Shown here piece by piece: positions 3,007-64,000 of a stretch of DNA of 64,000 bases. The stretch is from the sequence record PQ349265.1; one strand, 5' to 3'. A program made the translations under genes and the position numbers. Positions within the stretch are counted from its first letter, which is position 1. Each line of letters starts with the position of its first letter. This DNA is from Escherichia phage CJY920. Under the pieces are notes generated by a model, which had not been told where the DNA came from, ran no database searches, and was given only the letters and a program-made list of their open reading frames with translations.

Positions 3007-4126
3007 TTTTAACCTTAACTGGGTCTATTGTTTCCAGTTTCGTTGCATTAGTGAACATATATAGATGAGTTACCGAATTATTATTGGATAATTCATGGAT
3101 GACTTCATCAACGTAAAATTCTGTTTTAAATTGGTTTTTACTATCATTAAAAATAATTTTAACGCCAGGAGTCAAGTTAAAATTACCGACAGTAGAACAT
3201 TTAGCATAACCATCGTATTGTGCCATAGTTTGAAGACGAATAGCTTCTTCATATCCATTCCTATAAGTCATTTCAGAATAAGCACCTGACCTTGATACTA
3301 CAATAGAGTTTTCTCCCTTTCCTGTAGTAATCATTGGCAATGAAGAATCTAAAAATGAATGCGCATAGATAGTAGCGTTTTTCATTGGGTCGCGTTTGTG
3401 AGGATTTGATTTAGTCAACCAAACGAAATCATATGCTAATGGATATTTTAATTCTTGGATGAATTGACCTATTAAAGATGGCTCACCGACAATCATTGGA
3501 TATGGTTCTTGATTTATCATCATATCATAGTCCATCATGTTAACTCCCATGATGTCTTGCCATACAAATACAAATTTGTCACTTCCTACAGCTAGAGCAA
3601 CTTCTCTGACATACGACAAATAGTTTTCAAATGTGCTAGTCCATGGAATATCAGGAACATAAGCATTTATAGCATTTATTGCTGGAGTTAATAACGTGCG
3701 ATCCTGATAAATGACACCAAGCATTTCCTTTATAGATTCACCTGCATCAGAGAAAAACGGTCTGCCAAATTTAAGATTTTCTATAGAATGAATAGTTCCC
3801 AATTCAATAGCAATGATGTTATCACCCTTTGAATCTACAGATACAGAAAAATGCTTACATCCATAAATTCGTGTTTTAACATTATTAATATCGTTTGCAT
3901 TAGCTACAGAAATCTGAATTATTTCATTTCCATCCATTTTTGTATGGATATTTTTAGAATCATAAAACTGCAGCATTCCTTCATTTCGGCCATAAAGAGA
4001 ATCCCGCATAGTTAATGTGGTAATAGTAGCAGCTAATTCAACAAATCTATTATTACTCCAAGAGTCGTAGCTATCAAATAATTTAACGCTGAGATTTGGA
4101 TATCCTGGGCGTTGCAACATACTCAT
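2951..4126 (-). CDS. 27: baseplate hub subunit gp27
   Basis: 391-aa ORF; T4 length and synteny. Confidence 0.9.
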
Positions 4127-4875
4127 TATTGTTTATCCTTCTCAATCAGTTTTAATACGAATCCGCGCTCGGCAGGAATCATTTTCATTATTGAATTTAA
4201 GCTATAATTACTTTTTACGAGTGTGTGATTAATTTGATAAAAAGTAAATATCTCATCTGGGTTAACTAATAGCTTAAACACATCTACTATATCAGTGTAT
4301 TTTTTTACATACTTATCACAGCAGGACATATGTAGAGTTAAATTAATAGGATTCATTGCATCGAGAATTTTTTCTAATGTTTCTATCTCGATGGCGTCAA
4401 CGAGTTCTATTTGACTTGATTCGCTAATTTCCTTCCAATCATACCAAGTTTCATCTACTTGAACAGAATGAATATTTTCAGTAATCATCTTTGCTTTATT
4501 TTCATAAAACTCAGAAGGAAACTTTAATTTAATTTTAACATTAGCTACATCAAAAACAGGTTCCTTTAATTCTTTTTGATATATTTCAAATGGAACTGTC
4601 TTTTCTTTTTTACATTTTGGACATACAAATGTGACCGGTACTTTAGTTTTACCTATTGACCCTACAAATACCTGCAAAAATATAAATGGTTGCCAAGTCT
4701 TCGGATAATCTCCAAAATAATCGGCAATTAAATCAGCAATTATTTCTTTTTGTTCTTGTGGTGACCGATGTTCTATATCGTTTCGAACTAACAAAAAATC
4801 TCGATAATCTTCTACCGTAAATGGTTTAAAACGATGAACACCATCTGGTAATTTACAACGAATAATGTTTGCCAT
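4126..4875 (-). CDS. 51: baseplate hub assembly catalyst gp51
   Basis: 249-aa ORF with ATG start; T4 length and synteny. Confidence 0.8.
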
Positions 4876-57601: not shown

Positions 57602-58129
<528 letters not shown>

Positions 58130-58132
<3 letters not shown>

Positions 58133-58682: not shown

Positions 58683-59186
58683 ATGAATGCTTTTACACAC
58701 CATTCTGATGCTAGAGTAGAAGAAATTTGTAAAAACGATTATATCCCACCATTTGAAGACTTACTCAAGCAGTATTGCACACTTCGATTAGATGGTGGCA
58801 GACAATCCGGTAAATCAACTGCTGTGACTAACTTTGCTGCTAATTGGCTGTATGATGGTGGAACAGTTATTGTTCTTTCTAATACTTCAGCTTACGCTAA
58901 AATTTCTGCAGGCCACATTAAAAAAGAATTTTCTCGTTATTCTGGCGATGATATTCGATTCCGCTTATTTACCGATTCTGTCCGTAGTTTTATCGGTAAT
59001 AAAGGAAGCAAGTTCAGAGGTTTATCGCTTTCGCGGATTTTGTATATAATCGATGAGCCTGTTAAATCTCCTGATATGGATAAAATTTACGATATTCATA
59101 TTGAAACTGTGCACCACTGTTGCAATAGTAAATGCTGCATTGGTGGTATTACTCGTCCACAGTTTTTCATAATCGGAATGCAATGA
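58683..59186 (+). CDS. P-loop NTPase-like protein
   Basis: 167-aa ORF; Walker A GGRQSGKST and Walker B-like ILYIIDEP; weak RBS. Confidence 0.45.
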   Translation: MNAFTHHSDARVEEICKNDYIPPFEDLLKQYCTLRLDGGRQSGKSTAVTNFAANWLYDGGTVIVLSNTSAYAKISAGHIKKEFSRYSGDDIRFRLFTDSVRSFIGNKGSKFRGLSLSRILYIIDEPVKSPDMDKIYDIHIETVHHCCNSKCCIGGITRPQFFIIGMQ

Positions 59187-59512
59187 TGACAGACACGCAA
59201 CTTTTCGAATATCTTTATTTTTCGCCAAAAACTATTAAAAATAAATTGGTGAATCATTTTGAAATTTTGGCAAATAACAACGTCTTGAGCGAATTTTATC
59301 CTAAGCAATACAAATTACAAAAAGGCGTATTCAAAGGATGCAGAGTTTTGTGCACTGCTCCTAATGCAAGATTAATGAATAAAATTCCATATTTTACCAT
59401 GGAATTTATTGATGGGCCTTTTAAAGGACTAATTACCCAAAGTTTAATGGCATATGATTCTGAGCCATTTTTAATTAAAGAGCAATCTTGGATAAATTTA
59501 TTTTCTAATTGA
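59183..59512 (+). CDS. hypothetical protein
   Basis: Track ORF starts at 59132; ATGA overlap with the previous stop at 59183 gives 109 aa. Confidence 0.45.
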
Positions 59513-59520
59513 GAGGTTAT

Positions 59521-59884
59521 ATGAAAGCATATCAAATTCTTGAAGGCACGCATAAAGGTACTATTTATTTTGAAGACGGTATTCAAGCACGAATTATTGT
59601 CCTCTAAAACTTTTAAAGAGGACTCTTTTGTAGACCCAGAAATTTTCTATGGTTTGCATGCCCGTGAAATTGAAATTGAAACACAGCCTACAGTTAAAAT
59701 TGAGGGTGGTCAACACCTGAACGTTAACGTTCTGCGTCGTGAAACTCTGGAAGATGCAGTTAAGCATCCGGAAAAATATCCGCAGCTGACCATCCGTGTA
59801 TCCGGTTATGCAGTTCGCTTTAACTCTCTGACTCCGGAACAGCAGCGCGACGTTATCGCTCGTACCTTTACTGAGAGTCTGTAA
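59521..59884 (+). CDS. autonomous glycyl-radical cofactor (GrcA/YfiD-like), reading frame interrupted by an apparent 1-nt frameshift near 59600
   Basis: C-terminal [60 protein letters not shown] has the glycyl-radical motif RVSGYAV; ATG-initiated frame (59521-59607) stops after ...GIQARIIVL while the main frame (from 59540) has no ATG. Confidence 0.65.
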
Positions 59885-60060
59885 TGGCAAAGATAATTAT
59901 TGAAGGTTCTAAAGATGTGCTAAATGCTTTCGCCGAGTGGTTTAGTAATTCAGGCGAACAGCAATTTAATGAAGCATGGAACATGGGTGATATTAGTGGA
60001 ATTTATCCTACGACAGAAATTTCTGTTAGGGATATGGCATTCATGAACCTATTCGTTTAG
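59884..60060 (+). CDS. hypothetical small protein
   Basis: 58-aa ORF below the track cutoff; TAATG overlap with the preceding stop. Confidence 0.4.
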   Translation: MAKIIIEGSKDVLNAFAEWFSNSGEQQFNEAWNMGDISGIYPTTEISVRDMAFMNLFV

Positions 60061-60096
60061 TTGAATATGATTTAGGTACTGGTGAGGAAGTAAAAT

Positions 60097-60363
60097 ATGA
60101 TTGAAGATATTAAGGGTTATAAGCCACATACTGAAGAGAAAATCGGTAAAGTGAATGCTATCAAAGATGCTGAAGTTCGTTTAGGACTTATCTTTGATGC
60201 TTTATATGATGAATTCTGGGAAGCACTAGATAATTGTGAAGACTGTGAATTCGCGAAGAATTATGCTGAAAGTCTTGATCAGTTAACTATTGCTAAAACG
60301 AAACTCAAAGAAGCCAGTATGTGGGCTTGTCGTGCTGTGTTCCAACCAGAGGAAAAATATTAA
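60097..60363 (+). CDS. hypothetical protein
   Basis: 88-aa ORF; GAGGAAG RBS. Confidence 0.5.
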
Positions 60364-60641
60364 TGGCCCAATTAAGCGCAGGGTTTGGTTATGAGTATTA
60401 TACTGCCCCTCGTCGTGTATCTGTTGCTCCTAAGAAAATTCAAAGTCTTGATGACTTCCAGGAAGTAGTCCGTAAAGCTTTCCAGGACTATGCACGTTAT
60501 CTTAAAGAAGATTCGCAGGACTGTCTCGAAGAAGATGAAATTGCTTACTATGAGCAGCGTCTTGAACAGCTCAAAAACCTACATGAGGTTCGTGCAGAAG
60601 TTTCAAAGTCTATGAATAAATTGATTAGATTTAAAGAATAA
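60363..60641 (+). CDS. hypothetical protein
   Basis: Track ORF starts at 60321; TAATG overlap start at 60363 gives 92 aa. Confidence 0.45.
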
Positions 60642-60680
60642 CTGTTTACTTTTCCTCTTGACTGTGGTATAATTTTTCTA
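60636..60680 (+). promoter_or_regulatory. T4-type early promoter upstream of the regB-like gene
   Basis: GTTTAC at 60644-60649, 18 nt spacer, TATAAT at 60668-60673. Confidence 0.55.
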
Positions 60681-60700
60681 TCAGTTAAGAGGAGAATAAC

Positions 60701-61162
60701 ATGACTATCAACACAGAAGTTTTTATCCGTCGAAATAAGCTCCGTCGTCACTTTGAGTCGGAGTTTCGTCAAATTAACAATGAGATTCGTGAGGCATCAA
60801 AAGCAGCAGGAGTCTCATCGTTTCATCTAAAATATTCTCAGCATCTTCTTGATCGTGCAATTCAGCGGGAGATTGATGAGACATATGTTTTTGAATTATT
60901 CCACAAAATAAAAGACCATGTTTTAGAAGTTAATGAATTCCTGAGTATGCCTCCGCGTCATGACATTGACGAGGATTTTATTGATGGGGTTGAATATCGT
61001 CCTGGACGTTTAGAAATCACAGATGGAAATCTTTGGCTTGGATTTACAGTTTGTAAACCTAATGCGAAGTTCAAAGACCCGTCACTTCAGTGTAGGATGG
61101 CAATTATCAACAGTCGTCGTTTACCAGGAAAGGCTTCTAAAGCAGTAATTAAAACTCAATGA
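60701..61162 (+). CDS. regB: RegB-like site-specific endoribonuclease
   Basis: 153-aa ORF (the T4 RegB length as I recall); position upstream of vs/tk-region genes; AGAGGAG RBS. Confidence 0.55.
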   Translation: MTINTEVFIRRNKLRRHFESEFRQINNEIREASKAAGVSSFHLKYSQHLLDRAIQREIDETYVFELFHKIKDHVLEVNEFLSMPPRHDIDEDFIDGVEYRPGRLEITDGNLWLGFTVCKPNAKFKDPSLQCRMAIINSRRLPGKASKAVIKTQ

Positions 61163-61169
61163 GGTAAGC

Positions 61170-61715
61170 ATGAGAAAAGCACTACTCGCTGGTCTATTGG
61201 CCATTTCAATGATGGCACATAGCTCCGAGCATACTTTCAGTAATGTCCAACTCGATAACATGCGTTACGCGTATCAATTCGGGGAACAATTTTCCAAGGA
61301 TGGAAAATATAAAACACATAAAAATATCCACAAGAGCGGATTAGGTCATATAATGGCTGCTATTTTATGGCAAGAAAGCTCTGCCGGAGTTAATTTAAAA
61401 TCTAAACCAAAGCATCATGCCTACGGAATGTTCCAAAACTATTTGCCGACCATGCGTGCAAGAGTTAAGGAACTTGGTTATAATATGACTGATGCTGAAA
61501 TAAAAAGAATGTTGAATAAACGGTCCAATTCAGCTTCCTGGGCGTACATTGAACTTTCTTATTGGTTAAATATACATAAGGGAGATATAAGAAAGGCAAT
61601 ATCCTCTTATAATTCGGGATGGAATGTTAAAGCAGGTTCTAAATATGCTTCTGAAGTCCTAGAAAAGGCTAACTACCTTAAAAATAATAAACTGTTGGAA
61701 ATAGTAAATGACTAA
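61170..61715 (+). CDS. secreted lytic-transglycosylase-like (SLT-domain) protein
   Basis: Signal peptide MRKALLAGLLAISMMAHS; SLT motifs ILWQESSAG (catalytic Glu-Ser), AYGMFQ and SSYNSGWN. Confidence 0.55.
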   Translation: MRKALLAGLLAISMMAHSSEHTFSNVQLDNMRYAYQFGEQFSKDGKYKTHKNIHKSGLGHIMAAILWQESSAGVNLKSKPKHHAYGMFQNYLPTMRARVKELGYNMTDAEIKRMLNKRSNSASWAYIELSYWLNIHKGDIRKAISSYNSGWNVKAGSKYASEVLEKANYLKNNKLLEIVND

Positions 61716-62049
61716 AATTTTGGTTTTATGTATAGGATTAATTTCATTTTCTGCGTTAGCAAATACATCATATACTGAAATTAGAGAGTATGTAAACCGT
61801 ACTGCCGCGGATTATTGCGGGAAAAATAAAGCATGCCAAGCTGAATTTGCGCAGAAATTAATATATGCATATAAAGACGGAGAAAGAGATAAATCAAGCA
61901 GATACAAGAACGATACTTTATTAAAACGATATGCTAAAAAGTGGAATACCTTAGAATGTTCAGTTGCGGAGGAGAAAGATAAAGCCGCTTGTCATTCAAT
62001 GGTTGACCGTTTGGTAGATTCTTATAATCGAGGATTGAGCACTAGATGA
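61708..62049 (+). CDS. small secreted protein with four Cys
   Basis: Sec-type signal peptide MTKILVLCIGLISFSALA with AxA-like cleavage site; 113 aa. Confidence 0.5.
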   Translation: MTKILVLCIGLISFSALANTSYTEIREYVNRTAADYCGKNKACQAEFAQKLIYAYKDGERDKSSRYKNDTLLKRYAKKWNTLECSVAEEKDKAACHSMVDRLVDSYNRGLSTR

Positions 62050-62513
62050 TTGTAAAATATATCAAGGGCGATATTGTCGCCCTTTTCACTGAAGGTAAAA
62101 ATATTGCGCATGGATGCAATTGTTTTCATACTATGGGTTCAGGCGTAGCGGGTCAATTAACCAAAGCTTTCCCTAAAATTTTGGAAGCTGATAAATTACA
62201 GACTGAATGGGGTAATGTAACTAAACTCGGTTCTTACTCAGTCTATGAAAAATACTTTAGGACTCATAAAGCGTATTGCTTCAACCTTTATACTCAATTT
62301 CAACCAGGGCCAAATTTTGAGTATTCCGCTTTAATGAATTGTATGTTAGAATTAAATGAGTTTGGTGAAAATAAACTGATTAAACCTACAATCTATATGC
62401 CTAGGATTGGTGCAGGCATAGGTAAAGGGAACTGGGATATTATTGAGGGGATTTTAGATACATATTCCTCTAAATTAGAAATTGTGATTGTTGATTGGGA
62501 ACCGTTATTATGA
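62046..62513 (+). CDS. macro-domain (ADP-ribose binding/processing) protein
   Basis: GDIVALFTEGKNIAHGCNCFHTMGSGVAGQL and PRIGAGIGKG resemble macro-domain signature regions; 155 aa. Confidence 0.55.
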   Translation: MIVKYIKGDIVALFTEGKNIAHGCNCFHTMGSGVAGQLTKAFPKILEADKLQTEWGNVTKLGSYSVYEKYFRTHKAYCFNLYTQFQPGPNFEYSALMNCMLELNEFGENKLIKPTIYMPRIGAGIGKGNWDIIEGILDTYSSKLEIVIVDWEPLL

Positions 62514-62722
62514 ATATACATTATCCACATCCATATGACCCAAAGAATAAGGTAGTAATTATTCGTCAATGGGAACGCATTTGCCGTACTAAATGTCCAA
62601 TTAATAGTCCGCATGATGTAGATAAAGACTACATTGGAACATTCGTTGAATATACCTTTATTGATAAGAAAGGTCGTAAACAGCATGTAGAAGAATACTG
62701 CTTAAAGGTTACATGGTTATGA
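62510..62722 (+). CDS. hypothetical small protein
   Basis: ATGA overlap start; 70 aa; Cys/His-containing. Confidence 0.4.
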   Translation: MNIHYPHPYDPKNKVVIIRQWERICRTKCPINSPHDVDKDYIGTFVEYTFIDKKGRKQHVEEYCLKVTWL

Positions 62723-62925
62723 GCCAAACTAGTATTCTTAAAAATGCCCATTGTGAAAAGTGTAAATGGCCAGTTGTTTTTGCTTTATGCAACGATGAAA
62801 TGGCTTGTGATTTCGATTATTGGTGCTATTGTTCTAATAAAGGATGCATCAATCATAAAGGTGAAGGATTTTATTCGGGATTTTATCCTTATCCAGATTT
62901 CGTTAAAGAAGGTAAACCGAAATGA
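62719..62925 (+). CDS. hypothetical Cys-rich small protein
   Basis: ATGA overlap start (track alternative 62713); CEKCKW...CDFDYWCYCSNKGC. Confidence 0.4.
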   Translation: MSQTSILKNAHCEKCKWPVVFALCNDEMACDFDYWCYCSNKGCINHKGEGFYSGFYPYPDFVKEGKPK

Positions 62926-63095
62926 ATAGTTTTGAGTTACAGTATGAAGTGTTACGTGAGCTTGATAATTTAATTGAACTCGCTGTCAATAAAGGTTTTG
63001 CCATTGGAATTGGTCAAAAAGATACTGATCATTTAACTATGGAAATATTTAAGCAAAAACGAATTATTTTAAAACTTCTGGAAATTAATATATGA
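62922..63095 (+). CDS. hypothetical small protein
   Basis: 57-aa ORF below the track cutoff; ATGA overlap at both ends. Confidence 0.35.
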   Translation: MNSFELQYEVLRELDNLIELAVNKGFAIGIGQKDTDHLTMEIFKQKRIILKLLEINI

Positions 63096-63277
63096 GTCTG
63101 AGCAAAGAACAAAAAGATAAATTGTTTGAGCTTATCCATGAACTTCTAGATGAGCATACAGAAGCAAACACCTTTTATGATGAATACGGCCCGCTATCTC
63201 CCGAACAGCAGGAAGAATTTGCTGATCGGTTTGATAAGAAAGAAAATGAATTAATAGCTTATGTGAATACGCTTTAA
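63092..63277 (+). CDS. hypothetical acidic small protein
   Basis: 61-aa ORF with ATGA overlap. Confidence 0.4.
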   Translation: MSLSKEQKDKLFELIHELLDEHTEANTFYDEYGPLSPEQQEEFADRFDKKENELIAYVNTL

Positions 63278-63286
63278 GAAGGTGAT

Positions 63287-63868
63287 ATGGCGAGTTTAAT
63301 TTTTACTTATGCAGCAATGAATGCTGGAAAATCTGCTTCTCTTTTGACTGCTGCACATAATTATAAAGAACGTGGAATGAGTGTATTAGTTCTTAAGCCT
63401 GCTATTGATACTCGCGATTCTGTCTGTGAAGTCGTTTCTCGCATTGGAATTAAGCAGGAAGCGAATATTATTACAGATGATATGGATATTTTTGAGTTCT
63501 ATAAATGGGCTGAAGCACAAAAAGATATTCATTGTGTATTTGTAGATGAAGCTCAGTTTTTAAAAACTGAACAGGTGCATCAATTAAGTCGAATTGTTGA
63601 TACATATAATGTTCCTGTTATGGCTTATGGTCTAAGGACTGATTTCGCCGGAAAATTATTTGAAGGTTCTAAAGAACTTTTGGCGATTGCAGATAAACTT
63701 ATTGAACTAAAGGCAGTTTGTCATTGTGGTAAAAAAGCTATTATGACAGCTCGATTAATGGAAGATGGAACACCAGTTAAAGAAGGTAATCAAATCTGTA
63801 TTGGTGATGAAATTTATGTTTCTTTGTGTAGAAAACATTGGAACGAATTAACTAAAAAGCTCGGTTAG
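63287..63868 (+). CDS. tk: thymidine kinase
   Basis: 193-aa ORF; P-loop AMNAGKSAS; C-terminal Cys pairs typical of TK1-type kinases. Confidence 0.9.
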   Translation: MASLIFTYAAMNAGKSASLLTAAHNYKERGMSVLVLKPAIDTRDSVCEVVSRIGIKQEANIITDDMDIFEFYKWAEAQKDIHCVFVDEAQFLKTEQVHQLSRIVDTYNVPVMAYGLRTDFAGKLFEGSKELLAIADKLIELKAVCHCGKKAIMTARLMEDGTPVKEGNQICIGDEIYVSLCRKHWNELTKKLG

Positions 63869-63910
63869 TGCAAAAGTTATAAATAGGTTTATCTAACTAA
63901 AGGGGTATAT

Positions 63911-64000
63911 ATGCTACAATTAACTGAAAAGCAACTTCGCAATCTTACTGTTCTTCAATTAGATGAAATTCGTAGGGAAGTTGGAAATATCATTTCAGCT
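63911..64000 (+). CDS. ORF start (runs off the window end)
   Basis: ATG at 63911 after a GGGG-containing RBS; open to the window end. Confidence 0.3.

Follow-up and report, generated by a model that had tools for sequence, protein, structure and literature searches.

The tk.4 (adfM) gene of Escherichia phage CJY920 encodes a predicted Gln-type macrodomain protein that probably counteracts DarT2 modification of phage DNA

The stretch of DNA analysed here, called the window in what follows, comprises 64,000 nucleotides of Escherichia phage CJY920 (sequence record PQ349265.1), a member of Tequatrovirus, and contains the gene order regB-vs.1-vs-tk.4-tk.3...tk. The tk.4 product is a single-domain macrodomain protein of 155 aa according to both the ORF listing and an AlphaFold2 model, and the main features of the region are collected in Table 1. 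Comparison with Tk.4 of T4 (ORF 60.5, X04567) revealed 98.7% identity (153 of 155 residues), the sole differences being T15A and N57D, both at non-conserved positions. The Tequatrovirus gene to which the window ORF corresponds is tk.4, whose present name adfM stands for anti-DarT factor, macrodomain. The ORF is a genuine gene and not a chance one, because it matches PHROG 335 (E 2e-65), scores above the Pfam Macro gathering score, gives tblastn matches in 2750 phage records and, among the 8 nucleotide differences from the T4 gene, has 6 in unchanged codons. Members of the family were found by tblastn in phages including those of Vibrio, Pseudomonas and Acinetobacter, and they are also present in bacteria. 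The T4 record already carries the ORF under the label ORF 60.5, and many GenBank records already name the gene product as a macro-domain protein or a phosphatase, the latter being also the label of PHROG 335.

Table 1. Coordinates of tk.4 and of the features around and within it (nucleotide positions of the window; residues of Tk.4).
Feature	Position	Residues	Strand	Remarks
Shine-Dalgarno GAGGA	62030..62034		+	11 nt before ATG, within the 3' end of vs; read from sequence
tk.4/adfM coding sequence	62046..62513		+	ATG at 62046 to TGA at 62511-62513; 155 aa plus stop; ORF listing
ATGA overlap, tk.4 start / vs stop	62046..62049		+	Sequence and ORF ends; vs at 61708-62049
GDIV motif		aa 8-11	+	Sequence
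Loop 1, putative ADP-ribose-binding signature HGCNCFHTMGSGVAG	62109..62153	aa 22-36	+	H22-G-C-N25-C-F-H-T-M-G-S-G33-V-A35-G; alignment with reference enzymes
N80-L-Y82-T83-Q84 motif	62283..62297		+	Q84 at the position of TARG1 K84, DarG K80 and SCO6735 Gln85
Loop 2, putative diphosphate-binding signature P119-R-I121-G-A-G124-I-G-K-G-N-W130	62400..62435		+	Aligns with PRIGCGL of TARG1, BT1257 and SCO6735; PRIGAGIGKG at aa 119-128, nt 62400-62429
ATGA overlap, tk.4 stop / tk.3 start	62510..62513		+	Sequence; same arrangement in the T4 record
tk.3	62510-62722		+	70 aa; PHROG 2008 match over full length
tk	63287-63868			193 aa; downstream of tk.4

The location of tk.4 between vs and tk.3/tk is annotated alike in dozens of Tequatrovirus records. 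In T4 as in the window, tk.4 has the same length, follows vs and precedes tk.3 with ATGA overlaps, whereas the interval from tk.4 to tk in the window exceeds that of T4 by about 196 nt. A preliminary description of this DNA, made from the sequence alone, had placed the gene upstream of tk and coupled to its neighbours by ATGA overlaps; the location is right, the overlaps are real at both ends, and coupling through them was a correct reading. Translation of tk.4 would thus be coupled to that of vs and tk.3, and its expression would come from an early-region transcription unit shared with regB, vs.1, vs, tk.3 and tk. The counterpart region of T4 is on record under the name '58.3 to 65.5 kb early region'; there, an rRNA-binding site is marked at the place equivalent to the GAGGA of the window. 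A promoter scan of positions 59500-64000 gave fewer sigma-70-like sites than shuffled sequences (14 vs 17.1) and, as a consequence, no promoter is claimed for tk.4 itself. Codons 7-13 (62064-62084) contain a GC-rich hairpin that resembles a terminator on the minus strand; it was treated as chance because the 76-nt stretch of mRNA around it did not fold better than shuffled sequences (z -1.13).

At the protein level, residues 22-132 of Tk.4 aligned with positions 2-113 of the 118 of the Pfam Macro profile (PF01661), with a score of 28.1 bits (gathering threshold 22). The AlphaFold2 model had a pLDDT of 95.8 and a pTM of 0.91, and a Foldseek search of the PDB with it retrieved TARG1 (2.5e-10), Poa1p (1.2e-9), DarG (1.2e-7) and BT1257 (1.4e-7). 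All of the top 50 matches were macrodomains, with TM up to 0.81, except six designed serine hydrolases (OSH55 variants). The modelled structure of Tk.4 is a three-layer alpha/beta/alpha macro fold. The motifs GDIV, HGCNCFHTMGSGVAG and PRIGAGIGKG, from which a macro domain had been proposed in the preliminary description, are all in the ORF, and the profile score and the structure prediction uphold that identity. In addition, the loops of the macro superfamily (loop-1 Asn and GxG; loop-2 G-x-G-[IL]) are present, with N25, G33, A35, I121 and G124 aligning with TARG1, DarG and SCO6735. Among 80 homologues, with identity down to 34%, G23, N25, G33 and A35 of loop 1 show no variation, and conservation of H22, C24, C26 and M30 is 90% or more; Y82 and Q84 are also invariant, N80 and T83 occur in 79 of the 80, and loop 2 has P119, I121, G124 and W130 invariant. 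Sequence and model together identify Tk.4 as a member of the macro domain superfamily and a predicted ADP-ribose binder.

The best Foldseek match, human TARG1/OARD1 (PDB 4J5R/4J5S; TM 0.74-0.82), is of similar size and has a GD...AH...MGxGIA...MPRIGxG framework resembling that of Tk.4, but it has the catalytic dyad K84/D125 where Tk.4 has Q84 and G126. The macrodomain of DarG (T. aquaticus 5M31/5M3E, M. tuberculosis 5M3I) likewise has the fold of Tk.4 (Foldseek 1.2e-7 to 2.5e-7) and the loop-1 Asn, N25 of Tk.4 being aligned with N22 of DarG and N27 of SCO6735. The equivalence of Q84 to TARG1 K84, DarG K80 and SCO6735 Q85 was given by MAFFT and HMM alignments, which concur.

The biological role of this gene has been addressed in T4 by a preprint of November 2025 (bioRxiv 10.1101/2025.11.20.689424), whose genetics were obtained on that phage and not on CJY920. 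In a transposon screen (HIDEN-SEQ), tk.4 was the single hit on E. coli expressing DarTG2: its insertions were depleted specifically when DarTG2 was present, a conditionally essential behaviour. A clean tk.4 knockout made T4 sensitive to DarTG2, and the gene was renamed adfM; in the wording of the same preprint, ADP-ribose removal from DNA 'seems likely'. The gene and its anti-DarTG2 role were already published, the role in 2025. The proposal of the preliminary description that the protein could reverse the ADP-ribose marks of host defence agrees with these data. We consider the biological role of tk.4 settled by T4 genetics and infer the enzymology of the T4 protein.

A second phage protein called AdfM, gp104 of PhiKZ, is an orphan macrodomain which defeats DarTG2; biochemical work has demonstrated that it takes DarT2 marks off DNA (Cell Rep 2026, PMC13309987). 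DarG, PhiKZ gp104 and Tk.4 have a common biological target, the DarT2 modification. However, DarG and PhiKZ gp104 carry an FPTK...W motif whose Lys (K80/K78) is catalytic, the T-K motif of DarG being defined in a review (PMC8120803), whereas Tk.4 has Gln. Tk.4 and PhiKZ gp104 were 20% identical (E 0.003), and the DarG HMMs of NCBIfam (cut-off 250) and PADLOC gave 29.8 and 35.3 bits to Tk.4 against 137.8 and 132.9 to PhiKZ gp104. An Adpp orthologue, a protein discussed below, scored on these models the same as Tk.4. Moreover, DarG has a C-terminal DarT-binding domain, which is lacking in the 155-aa single domain of Tk.4. As judged from these sequence features, Tk.4 is not a DarG-type (Lys-type) macrodomain. 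T4 Tk.4 and PhiKZ gp104, although both called AdfM, are assigned to different macrodomain subclasses because of the Lys versus Gln difference, the low identity, the DarG HMM scores and the DarT-binding domain missing from Tk.4. No DarT2 homologue and no second macrodomain was found within the 64-kb window.

The residues at the putative active site of Tk.4 are those of the Gln-type ALC1-like macrodomains, represented by SCO6735 from Streptomyces coelicolor (PDB 5E3B) and the closely homologous BT1257 (2FG1). SCO6735 is also a stand-alone protein of about 150 aa with the loop-1 Asn and with Gln where TARG1 and DarG have their catalytic Lys (N25/Q84 in Tk.4, N27/Q85 in SCO6735). BT1257, which shares the Gln at this Lys-equivalent position, headed the PDB sequence matches of Tk.4 (3e-9; with the family profile, 5.8e-19). 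SCO6735 cleaves the thymidine-linked ADP-ribose (dT-ADPr) made by DarT and rescues E. coli from DarT, and its inactivation by Q85A/E and N27S indicates that Gln85 and Asn27 are essential. The absence of the DarG/TARG1 catalytic Lys had been considered as an argument against DNA de-ADP-ribosylation by Tk.4, and it was dropped because SCO6735, with Gln at that place, needs this Gln and cleaves dT-ADPr efficiently. There are also differences: SCO6735 and Tk.4 are only about 21% identical; SCO6735 has a longer, basic and mobile loop (K89, K94) that clamps DNA and is lacking in Tk.4, whose own loop (Q84-FQPGPNFE) is about 5 residues shorter and devoid of Lys or Arg; the pI is 6.3 for Tk.4 and 9.9 for the SCO6735 fragment; and Val25 of SCO6735 corresponds to the invariant Gly23 of the Tk.4 family.

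All these data can be brought together in the following scheme. DarT2, once released from the DarTG2 of the host, ADP-ribosylates thymidines in single-stranded phage DNA and blocks replication. The ADP-ribose moiety most likely sits in the cleft formed by loops 1 and 2 of Tk.4, and the protein most likely hydrolyses the bond between ribose C1'' and thymine, giving free ADP-ribose and normal DNA. For catalysis the scheme follows SCO6735 (Gln type): Asn25 would hold the invariant Gln84, and Gln84 would position the distal ribose for a water-mediated cleavage with no Lys of the DarG/TARG1 type. We give a probability of about three in four to this explanation as a whole, that is, that tk.4/adfM encodes a protein which hydrolyses the ADP-ribosyl-thymidine made by DarT2 on phage DNA in a Gln/Asn-dependent manner. 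T4 genetics and the SCO6735 precedent suggest that the T4-type protein itself is a DNA ADP-ribosylglycohydrolase, and the conserved residues point to a Gln-type mechanism. In its favour we counted the invariant N25 and Q84, the macro fold, the synteny with T4, the DarTG2 genetics and the precedents of SCO6735 and PhiKZ gp104. Against it we counted that the closest characterised relative is Adpp, which is no DNA hydrolase, that the similarity to DarG is weak, that Tk.4 has the short Lys-free loop after Q84 and the low pI already mentioned, and that the DarTG2 genetics stand in a preprint and concern T4, not CJY920. A further point against it was that no DarT2 homologue was found within 4 kb of family members at the best 80 bacterial loci (phmmer E<=1). 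On the same result, the possibility that the bacterial family members at these 80 loci are Gln-type DarG proteins with a DarT partner was rejected. Around the bacterial family members lay lineage-specific housekeeping genes; NadV-like genes occurred at 4 loci and Nudix-like genes also at 4.

The relationship with Adpp raises the question of whether Tk.4 could be mainly a phosphatase for ADP-ribose-1''-phosphate, like Adpp and Poa1p, with a soluble NAD+-derived metabolite as its substrate, for example one from RES-type NAD+ phosphorolysis or RNA 2'-phosphate removal; the DarTG2 phenotype would then reflect a side reaction or arise indirectly. Adpp of Vibrio phage Gary (KNV71_gp137) is the nearest biochemically characterised relative of Tk.4 (34% identity, E 7e-23), and the HMM of the Tk.4 family gave it 112.7 bits, against 37-68 bits for DarG, TARG1, SCO6735 and BT1257. 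Both proteins fall into PHROG 335 and share the signatures H-x-C-N-C, A-D, N-x-Y-x-Q and G-G-[DN]-W. Yeast Poa1p (PDB 6LFQ/6LFR) was the second Foldseek match of Tk.4 (TM 0.80; phmmer 2e-6), and its loop-1 His H23, whose role is taken from the title of the PDB entry of the H23A structure, aligns with H22 of Tk.4; the role of Poa1p S30 is likewise taken solely from PDB entry titles. Additionally, homologues of Tk.4 adjoin RNA-repair genes in KVP40 and in one T4-like MAG contig, and a few bacterial homologues adjoin NadV- or Nudix-like genes.

Adpp is the NARP1-associated ADPR-1''-phosphate phosphatase and, as proposed for Tk.4, a phage counter-defence protein acting on the C1'' substituent of ADP-ribose. 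However, its proven substrate is a soluble metabolite and not DNA, and it has a 7-residue insertion after the conserved Gln with respect to Tk.4. It acts within an Adps-Adpp-Namat operon and lies between Adps and Namat in Gary and Brizo, whereas tk.4 lies between vs and tk.3. No Adps or Namat homologue was found in the window (best tblastn E 0.24), so that dephosphorylation of ADPR-1P would have no downstream pathway there. The T4 screen, which was unbiased, tied tk.4 specifically to DarTG2, a system that modifies DNA and does not make ADPR-1P. Furthermore, both reactions cleave the C1'' substituent of the ribose, so a phosphatase activity would be compatible with activity on DNA. As a main function, the phosphatase is in our opinion improbable.

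The hydrolysis of DarT2 marks by Tk.4 must also be weighed against protection mainly without catalysis, in which Tk.4 would bind and inhibit DarT2 or shield the ADP-ribosylated DNA. In favour of such a mode of action, inhibition of DarT in vitro is known for three catalytically dead variants, namely DarG K80A, TARG1 K84A and, most strongly, SCO6735 Q85A. Nevertheless, the residues invariant in the family are those of the ADP-ribose pocket and of the catalytic position (N25, G33, Q84, G124, W130), and the pocket residues are kept in hundreds of bacterial homologues without a DarT neighbour (best 80 loci checked), which fits an enzyme better than a toxin-specific binder. Since, besides, Tk.4 does not have the DarT-binding domain of DarG, we regard protection of this kind as very unlikely.

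The preliminary description had also considered that the protein might act on the phage's own modifications. Tk.4 would then erase or read the marks (or RNAylation) of Alt, ModA and ModB, or ADP-ribose on RNA, and tune host takeover. It is established that tk.4 co-occurs with Alt, ModA and ModB in T-even phages, and the Alt/Mod enzymes target arginine. The substrates of TARG1-class macrodomains can be of several kinds, nucleic-acid ends among them, and macrodomains of MacroD/TARG1 type act on acidic-residue esters, OAADPr and nucleic-acid ends, but the removal of arginine-linked ADP-ribose is assigned to DraG/ARH-type hydrolases and not to macrodomains (PMC8120803). Depletion of tk.4 insertions was tied specifically to DarTG2 (bioRxiv 10.1101/2025.11.20.689424), and the family also occurs in the many other phages and the bacteria mentioned above. 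The erasure or reading of Alt, ModA or ModB marks thus found no support, and we give this reading a next to negligible probability.

With respect to what was published before, this analysis adds that Tk.4 is of the Gln type, that its nearest characterised relative is Adpp and that the AdfM of PhiKZ is a separate, DarG-like protein of the Lys type. The selection of tk.4 by a reading of the letters only serves as a positive control for such an approach, as a real phage counter-defence gene was picked out. The remaining point is mechanistic and concerns a T4-type protein without the Lys of DarG, with the Gln of SCO6735 and with an ADPR-1''P phosphatase as its nearest relative. A wider reading, which we put forward tentatively and hold to be possible although rather doubtful, is that the AdfM of T4 type is a broad-spectrum 'C1''-eraser' and not a captured DarG, belonging to a clade of Gln-type macrodomains, common in bacteria too as stand-alone proteins lacking a DarT alongside, that was also the source of phage Adpp, and maybe acting on several ADP-ribose substrates. 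If this were true, T4-type AdfM might strip DarT2 marks from DNA and also dephosphorylate ADPR-1''P, or act on further ADP-ribose conjugates, ADP-ribosylated RNA for instance, one gene thus acting against several NAD+-based defences, and T4 Tk.4 and PhiKZ gp104 would represent two independent recruitments of different macrodomain subclasses against DarTG2.

The ORF at 62046–62513 is a real gene, since its product, Tk.4, matched PHROG 335 (E 2e-65), tblastn recovered relatives in 2750 phage records and, from a total of eight nucleotide differences with respect to T4, six were in unchanged codons. The reading frame with its three motifs, the ATGA overlaps at both ends and the location upstream of tk on the same strand were all found as the preliminary description had put them. 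Gene order on this strand is regB, vs.1, vs, tk.4, tk.3, three more small ORFs and tk. Megablast with 60700–63900 gave 472 phage records at a query coverage of at least 80%, the top matches being Escherichia Tequatrovirus genomes (98.5% identical). The protein was 98.7% identical to ORF 60.5 of X04567 (T4 '58.3 to 65.5 kb early region'), T15A and N57D, both at non-conserved positions, being the sole differences from T4 Tk.4, and by this sequence comparison the gene is T4 tk.4, that is, adfM. GenBank orthologues are already labelled 'macro domain protein', 'phosphatase' or 'Poa1p-like family protein'.

Features of the tk.4 region and of gene e
Feature	Position	Strand	Remarks
lysozyme gene e	57638-58132		58683-59186 ORF in region after e
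regB	60701-61162	+	153 aa
vs.1	61170-61715	+	
vs	61708-62049	+	
Shine-Dalgarno GAGGA	11 nt upstream of tk.4 ATG	+	read from sequence
ATGA overlap, vs stop/tk.4 start	62046-62049	+	
tk.4	62046-62513	+	ATG to TGA, 155 codons
GDIV motif	Tk.4 residues 8-11		present in translation
HGCNCFHTMGSGVAG motif	Tk.4 residues 22-36		present in translation
PRIGAGIGKG motif	Tk.4 residues 119-128		present in translation
ATGA overlap, tk.4 stop/tk.3 start	62510-62513	+	
tk.3	62510-62722	+	70 aa
small ORF, tk.4-tk interval	62713-62925	+	70 aa, Cys-rich product
small ORF, tk.4-tk interval	62922-63095	+	57 aa
small ORF, tk.4-tk interval	63092-63277	+	61 aa
tk	63287-63868	+	193 aa

The four small + strand ORFs between tk.4 and tk (62510–63277), each matching a PHROG of unknown function, were joined by short overlaps (ATGA at 62922 and 63092); in T4 the corresponding interval is shorter by about 196 nt and contains three ORFs (70, 61 and 62 aa). 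Inside codons 7–13 of tk.4 there is a perfect 8-bp GC-rich inverted repeat (62064–62084; AAGGGCGA TATTG TCGCCCTT), which a scan picked out as resembling a minus-strand terminator; its 76-nt mRNA context was no more stable than shuffles (z −1.13). Upstream, a 114-aa ORF (59540–59884, +) matched PHROG 1209 (unknown function) and also a PHROG profile of 760 positions, at the C-terminal end of the latter; its product presumably ends in a sequence like the glycyl-radical signature known from 'spare part' proteins of the GrcA/YfiD type. A 167-aa ORF (58683–59186, +) with a P-loop-like GGRQSGKST matched PHROG 1488 (unknown function) and, weakly, a terminase large-subunit ATPase profile (3e-6). From the ORF listing alone, no denV-like product was recognised among the ORFs listed after e.

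Tk.4 scored 28.1 bits against Pfam Macro (PF01661; gathering score 22), and its AlphaFold2 model, obtained with an 80-sequence alignment as input, was confident (mean pLDDT 95.8, pTM 0.91). Foldseek comparison of this model with the PDB retrieved TARG1 (2.5e-10), Poa1p (1.2e-9, TM 0.80), T. aquaticus DarG (1.2e-7), BT1257 (1.4e-7) and M. tuberculosis DarG (2.4e-7), followed by viral macrodomains. Both the Pfam and the Foldseek results thus point to a macro fold, as had been proposed from the motifs.

The suggestion that a phage macrodomain could reverse ADP-ribose marks of host defence was also correct, and already published. In T4 transposon-insertion sequencing, tk.4 was the single significantly depleted gene on E. 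coli expressing DarTG2, a defence whose toxin DarT2 ADP-ribosylates thymidines in DNA, and a clean T4 tk.4 knockout became DarTG2-sensitive (bioRxiv 10.1101/2025.11.20.689424, November 2025). The anti-defence role of tk.4 is therefore known for T4. The same preprint gave the gene its new name, adfM (anti-DarT factor Macrodomain), and its authors reason by analogy with the macrodomain antitoxin DarG that an enzymatic stripping of ADP-ribose from DNA 'seems likely' (bioRxiv 10.1101/2025.11.20.689424). Besides this preprint, tk.4 and ADP-ribosylation appeared together only in two comparative-genomics papers in the literature searched.

Action on the marks of Alt, ModA and ModB, also contemplated initially, found no support. 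The target of Alt and Mod is arginine. Removal of Arg-linked ADP-ribose is attributed to DraG/ARH-type enzymes, the substrates of MacroD/TARG1-type macrodomains being acidic-residue esters, OAADPr and nucleic-acid ends (PMC8120803).

The name AdfM is also borne by PhiKZ gp104, biochemically shown to strip DarT2-made ADP-ribose from a TNTC oligonucleotide (PMC13309987). This protein has an FPTK..W motif, matched M. tuberculosis DarG (phmmer 9.4e-25) and, judged by sequence, is a true DarG-type macrodomain, with 137.8 and 132.9 bits on the NCBIfam and PADLOC DarG models, whereas Tk.4 gave 29.8 and 35.3 bits, respectively, and shared 20% identity with gp104 (E 0.003). In addition, Tk.4 has no Lys at the DarG/TARG1 catalytic position. 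MAFFT and HMM alignments agreed in placing its Q84 (N-L-Y-T-Q motif) opposite DarG K80 and K84 of TARG1, the sequence of the latter having been verified against the PDB. Across 80 family members, with identities as low as 34%, residues G23, N25, G33, A35, D49, Y82, Q84, P119, I121, G124 and W130 did not vary.

The missing Lys is no argument against DNA de-ADP-ribosylation, since SCO6735, a stand-alone macrodomain of Streptomyces coelicolor with Gln85 at that position, efficiently cleaves DarT-made thymidine-ADP-ribose and rescues E. coli from DarT (PMC9411070). It is inactivated by Q85A/E and also by N27S, which unlocks Gln85, and this Gln sets SCO6735/ALC1 homologues apart from TARG1/DarG (PMC9411070). 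The top PDB sequence match of Tk.4, BT1257, is a close SCO6735 homologue (3.9e-51). Because N25, N80 and Q84 of Tk.4 align with SCO6735 N27, N81 and Q85 in the Tk.4-family HMM, Tk.4 is classed as a Gln-type macrodomain. AdfM accordingly names members of two macrodomain subclasses, the Gln-type, Adpp/SCO6735-like Tk.4 and the Lys-type, DarG-like gp104. We consider, with a probability of about three in four, that Tk.4 is a hydrolase of the Gln type clearing DarT2-made ADP-ribose from thymidines of phage DNA, for which a water-mediated cleavage, as in SCO6735, of the bond between ribose and thymine would be the most economical mechanism. However, in place of the basic DNA-clamping loop of SCO6735, Tk.4 has after Q84 a loop about five residues shorter and without Lys, and its pI is 6.3, not basic, against 9.9 for the SCO6735 fragment.

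The main alternative is that Tk.4 acts as an ADPR-1''-phosphate phosphatase like Adpp, a Poa1p-like macrodomain of the Adps-Adpp-Namat (NARP1-AP) operon of Vibrio phage Gary, which converts ADPR-1''-phosphate to ADPR and thereby defeats the RES-type defence aRES (bioRxiv 10.64898/2026.01.28.702374). We recovered Gary Adpp (KNV71_gp137) and its Brizo orthologue within their operons. The closest characterised relative of Tk.4 is indeed Gary Adpp, not a DNA hydrolase (34% identity, E 7e-23), with which it has in common the HxCNC, AD, NxYxQ and GG[DN]W signatures. Gary Adpp reached 112.7 bits when scored with the Tk.4-family HMM, above every other reference (BT1257, 67.7; TARG1, 60.8; SCO6735, 55.5; DarG macrodomains, 49–55; PhiKZ gp104, 37.1). 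However, no Adps or Namat homologue was found in the 64-kb window, so that such a phosphatase would here be devoid of its pathway partners, and the T4 screen implicates DarTG2, which modifies DNA. A dual activity of Tk.4, on ADP-ribosylated DNA and ADPR-1''-phosphate, is plausible because both reactions take off the substituent of ribose C1''.

Tk.4 relatives are widespread in bacteria, being encoded in at least 521 stretches of GTDB representative genomes. In the best 80 of these, the family gene was a stand-alone ORF, mostly of 150–175 aa, with no DarT2 homologue within 4 kb and no conserved partner, its neighbours being lineage-specific housekeeping genes; NadV-like and Nudix-like neighbours appeared at four loci each. 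Several 'bacterial MAG' contigs with the closest homologues resembled T4-like phage DNA, for instance the retrieved stretches L004/L006 (Rnl1, Dda-like helicase, spanin, PNKP and dCMP deaminase) and three loci with a vs.1-like neighbour, so some of these matches are phage sequence binned into MAGs. In the retrieved phage stretches, the family gene had genes of RNA repair or NAD salvage as neighbours. In KVP40 (4001–4513) it immediately followed pseT, with rnlA nearby; in a T4-like MAG contig (1927–2397) it was preceded by an Rnl1-like gene, with PNKP in its vicinity; in Vibrio phage Brizo (3504–3977) Adps and Namat stood on either side of it, with flanking RNA ligase genes. It is possible, though less likely than not, that Tk.4 is an eraser with several substrates and was recruited separately from DarG. 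The data fit a Tk.4 clade that is an old, general ADP-ribose-processing group on which phages have drawn, and not a captured DarG antitoxin.
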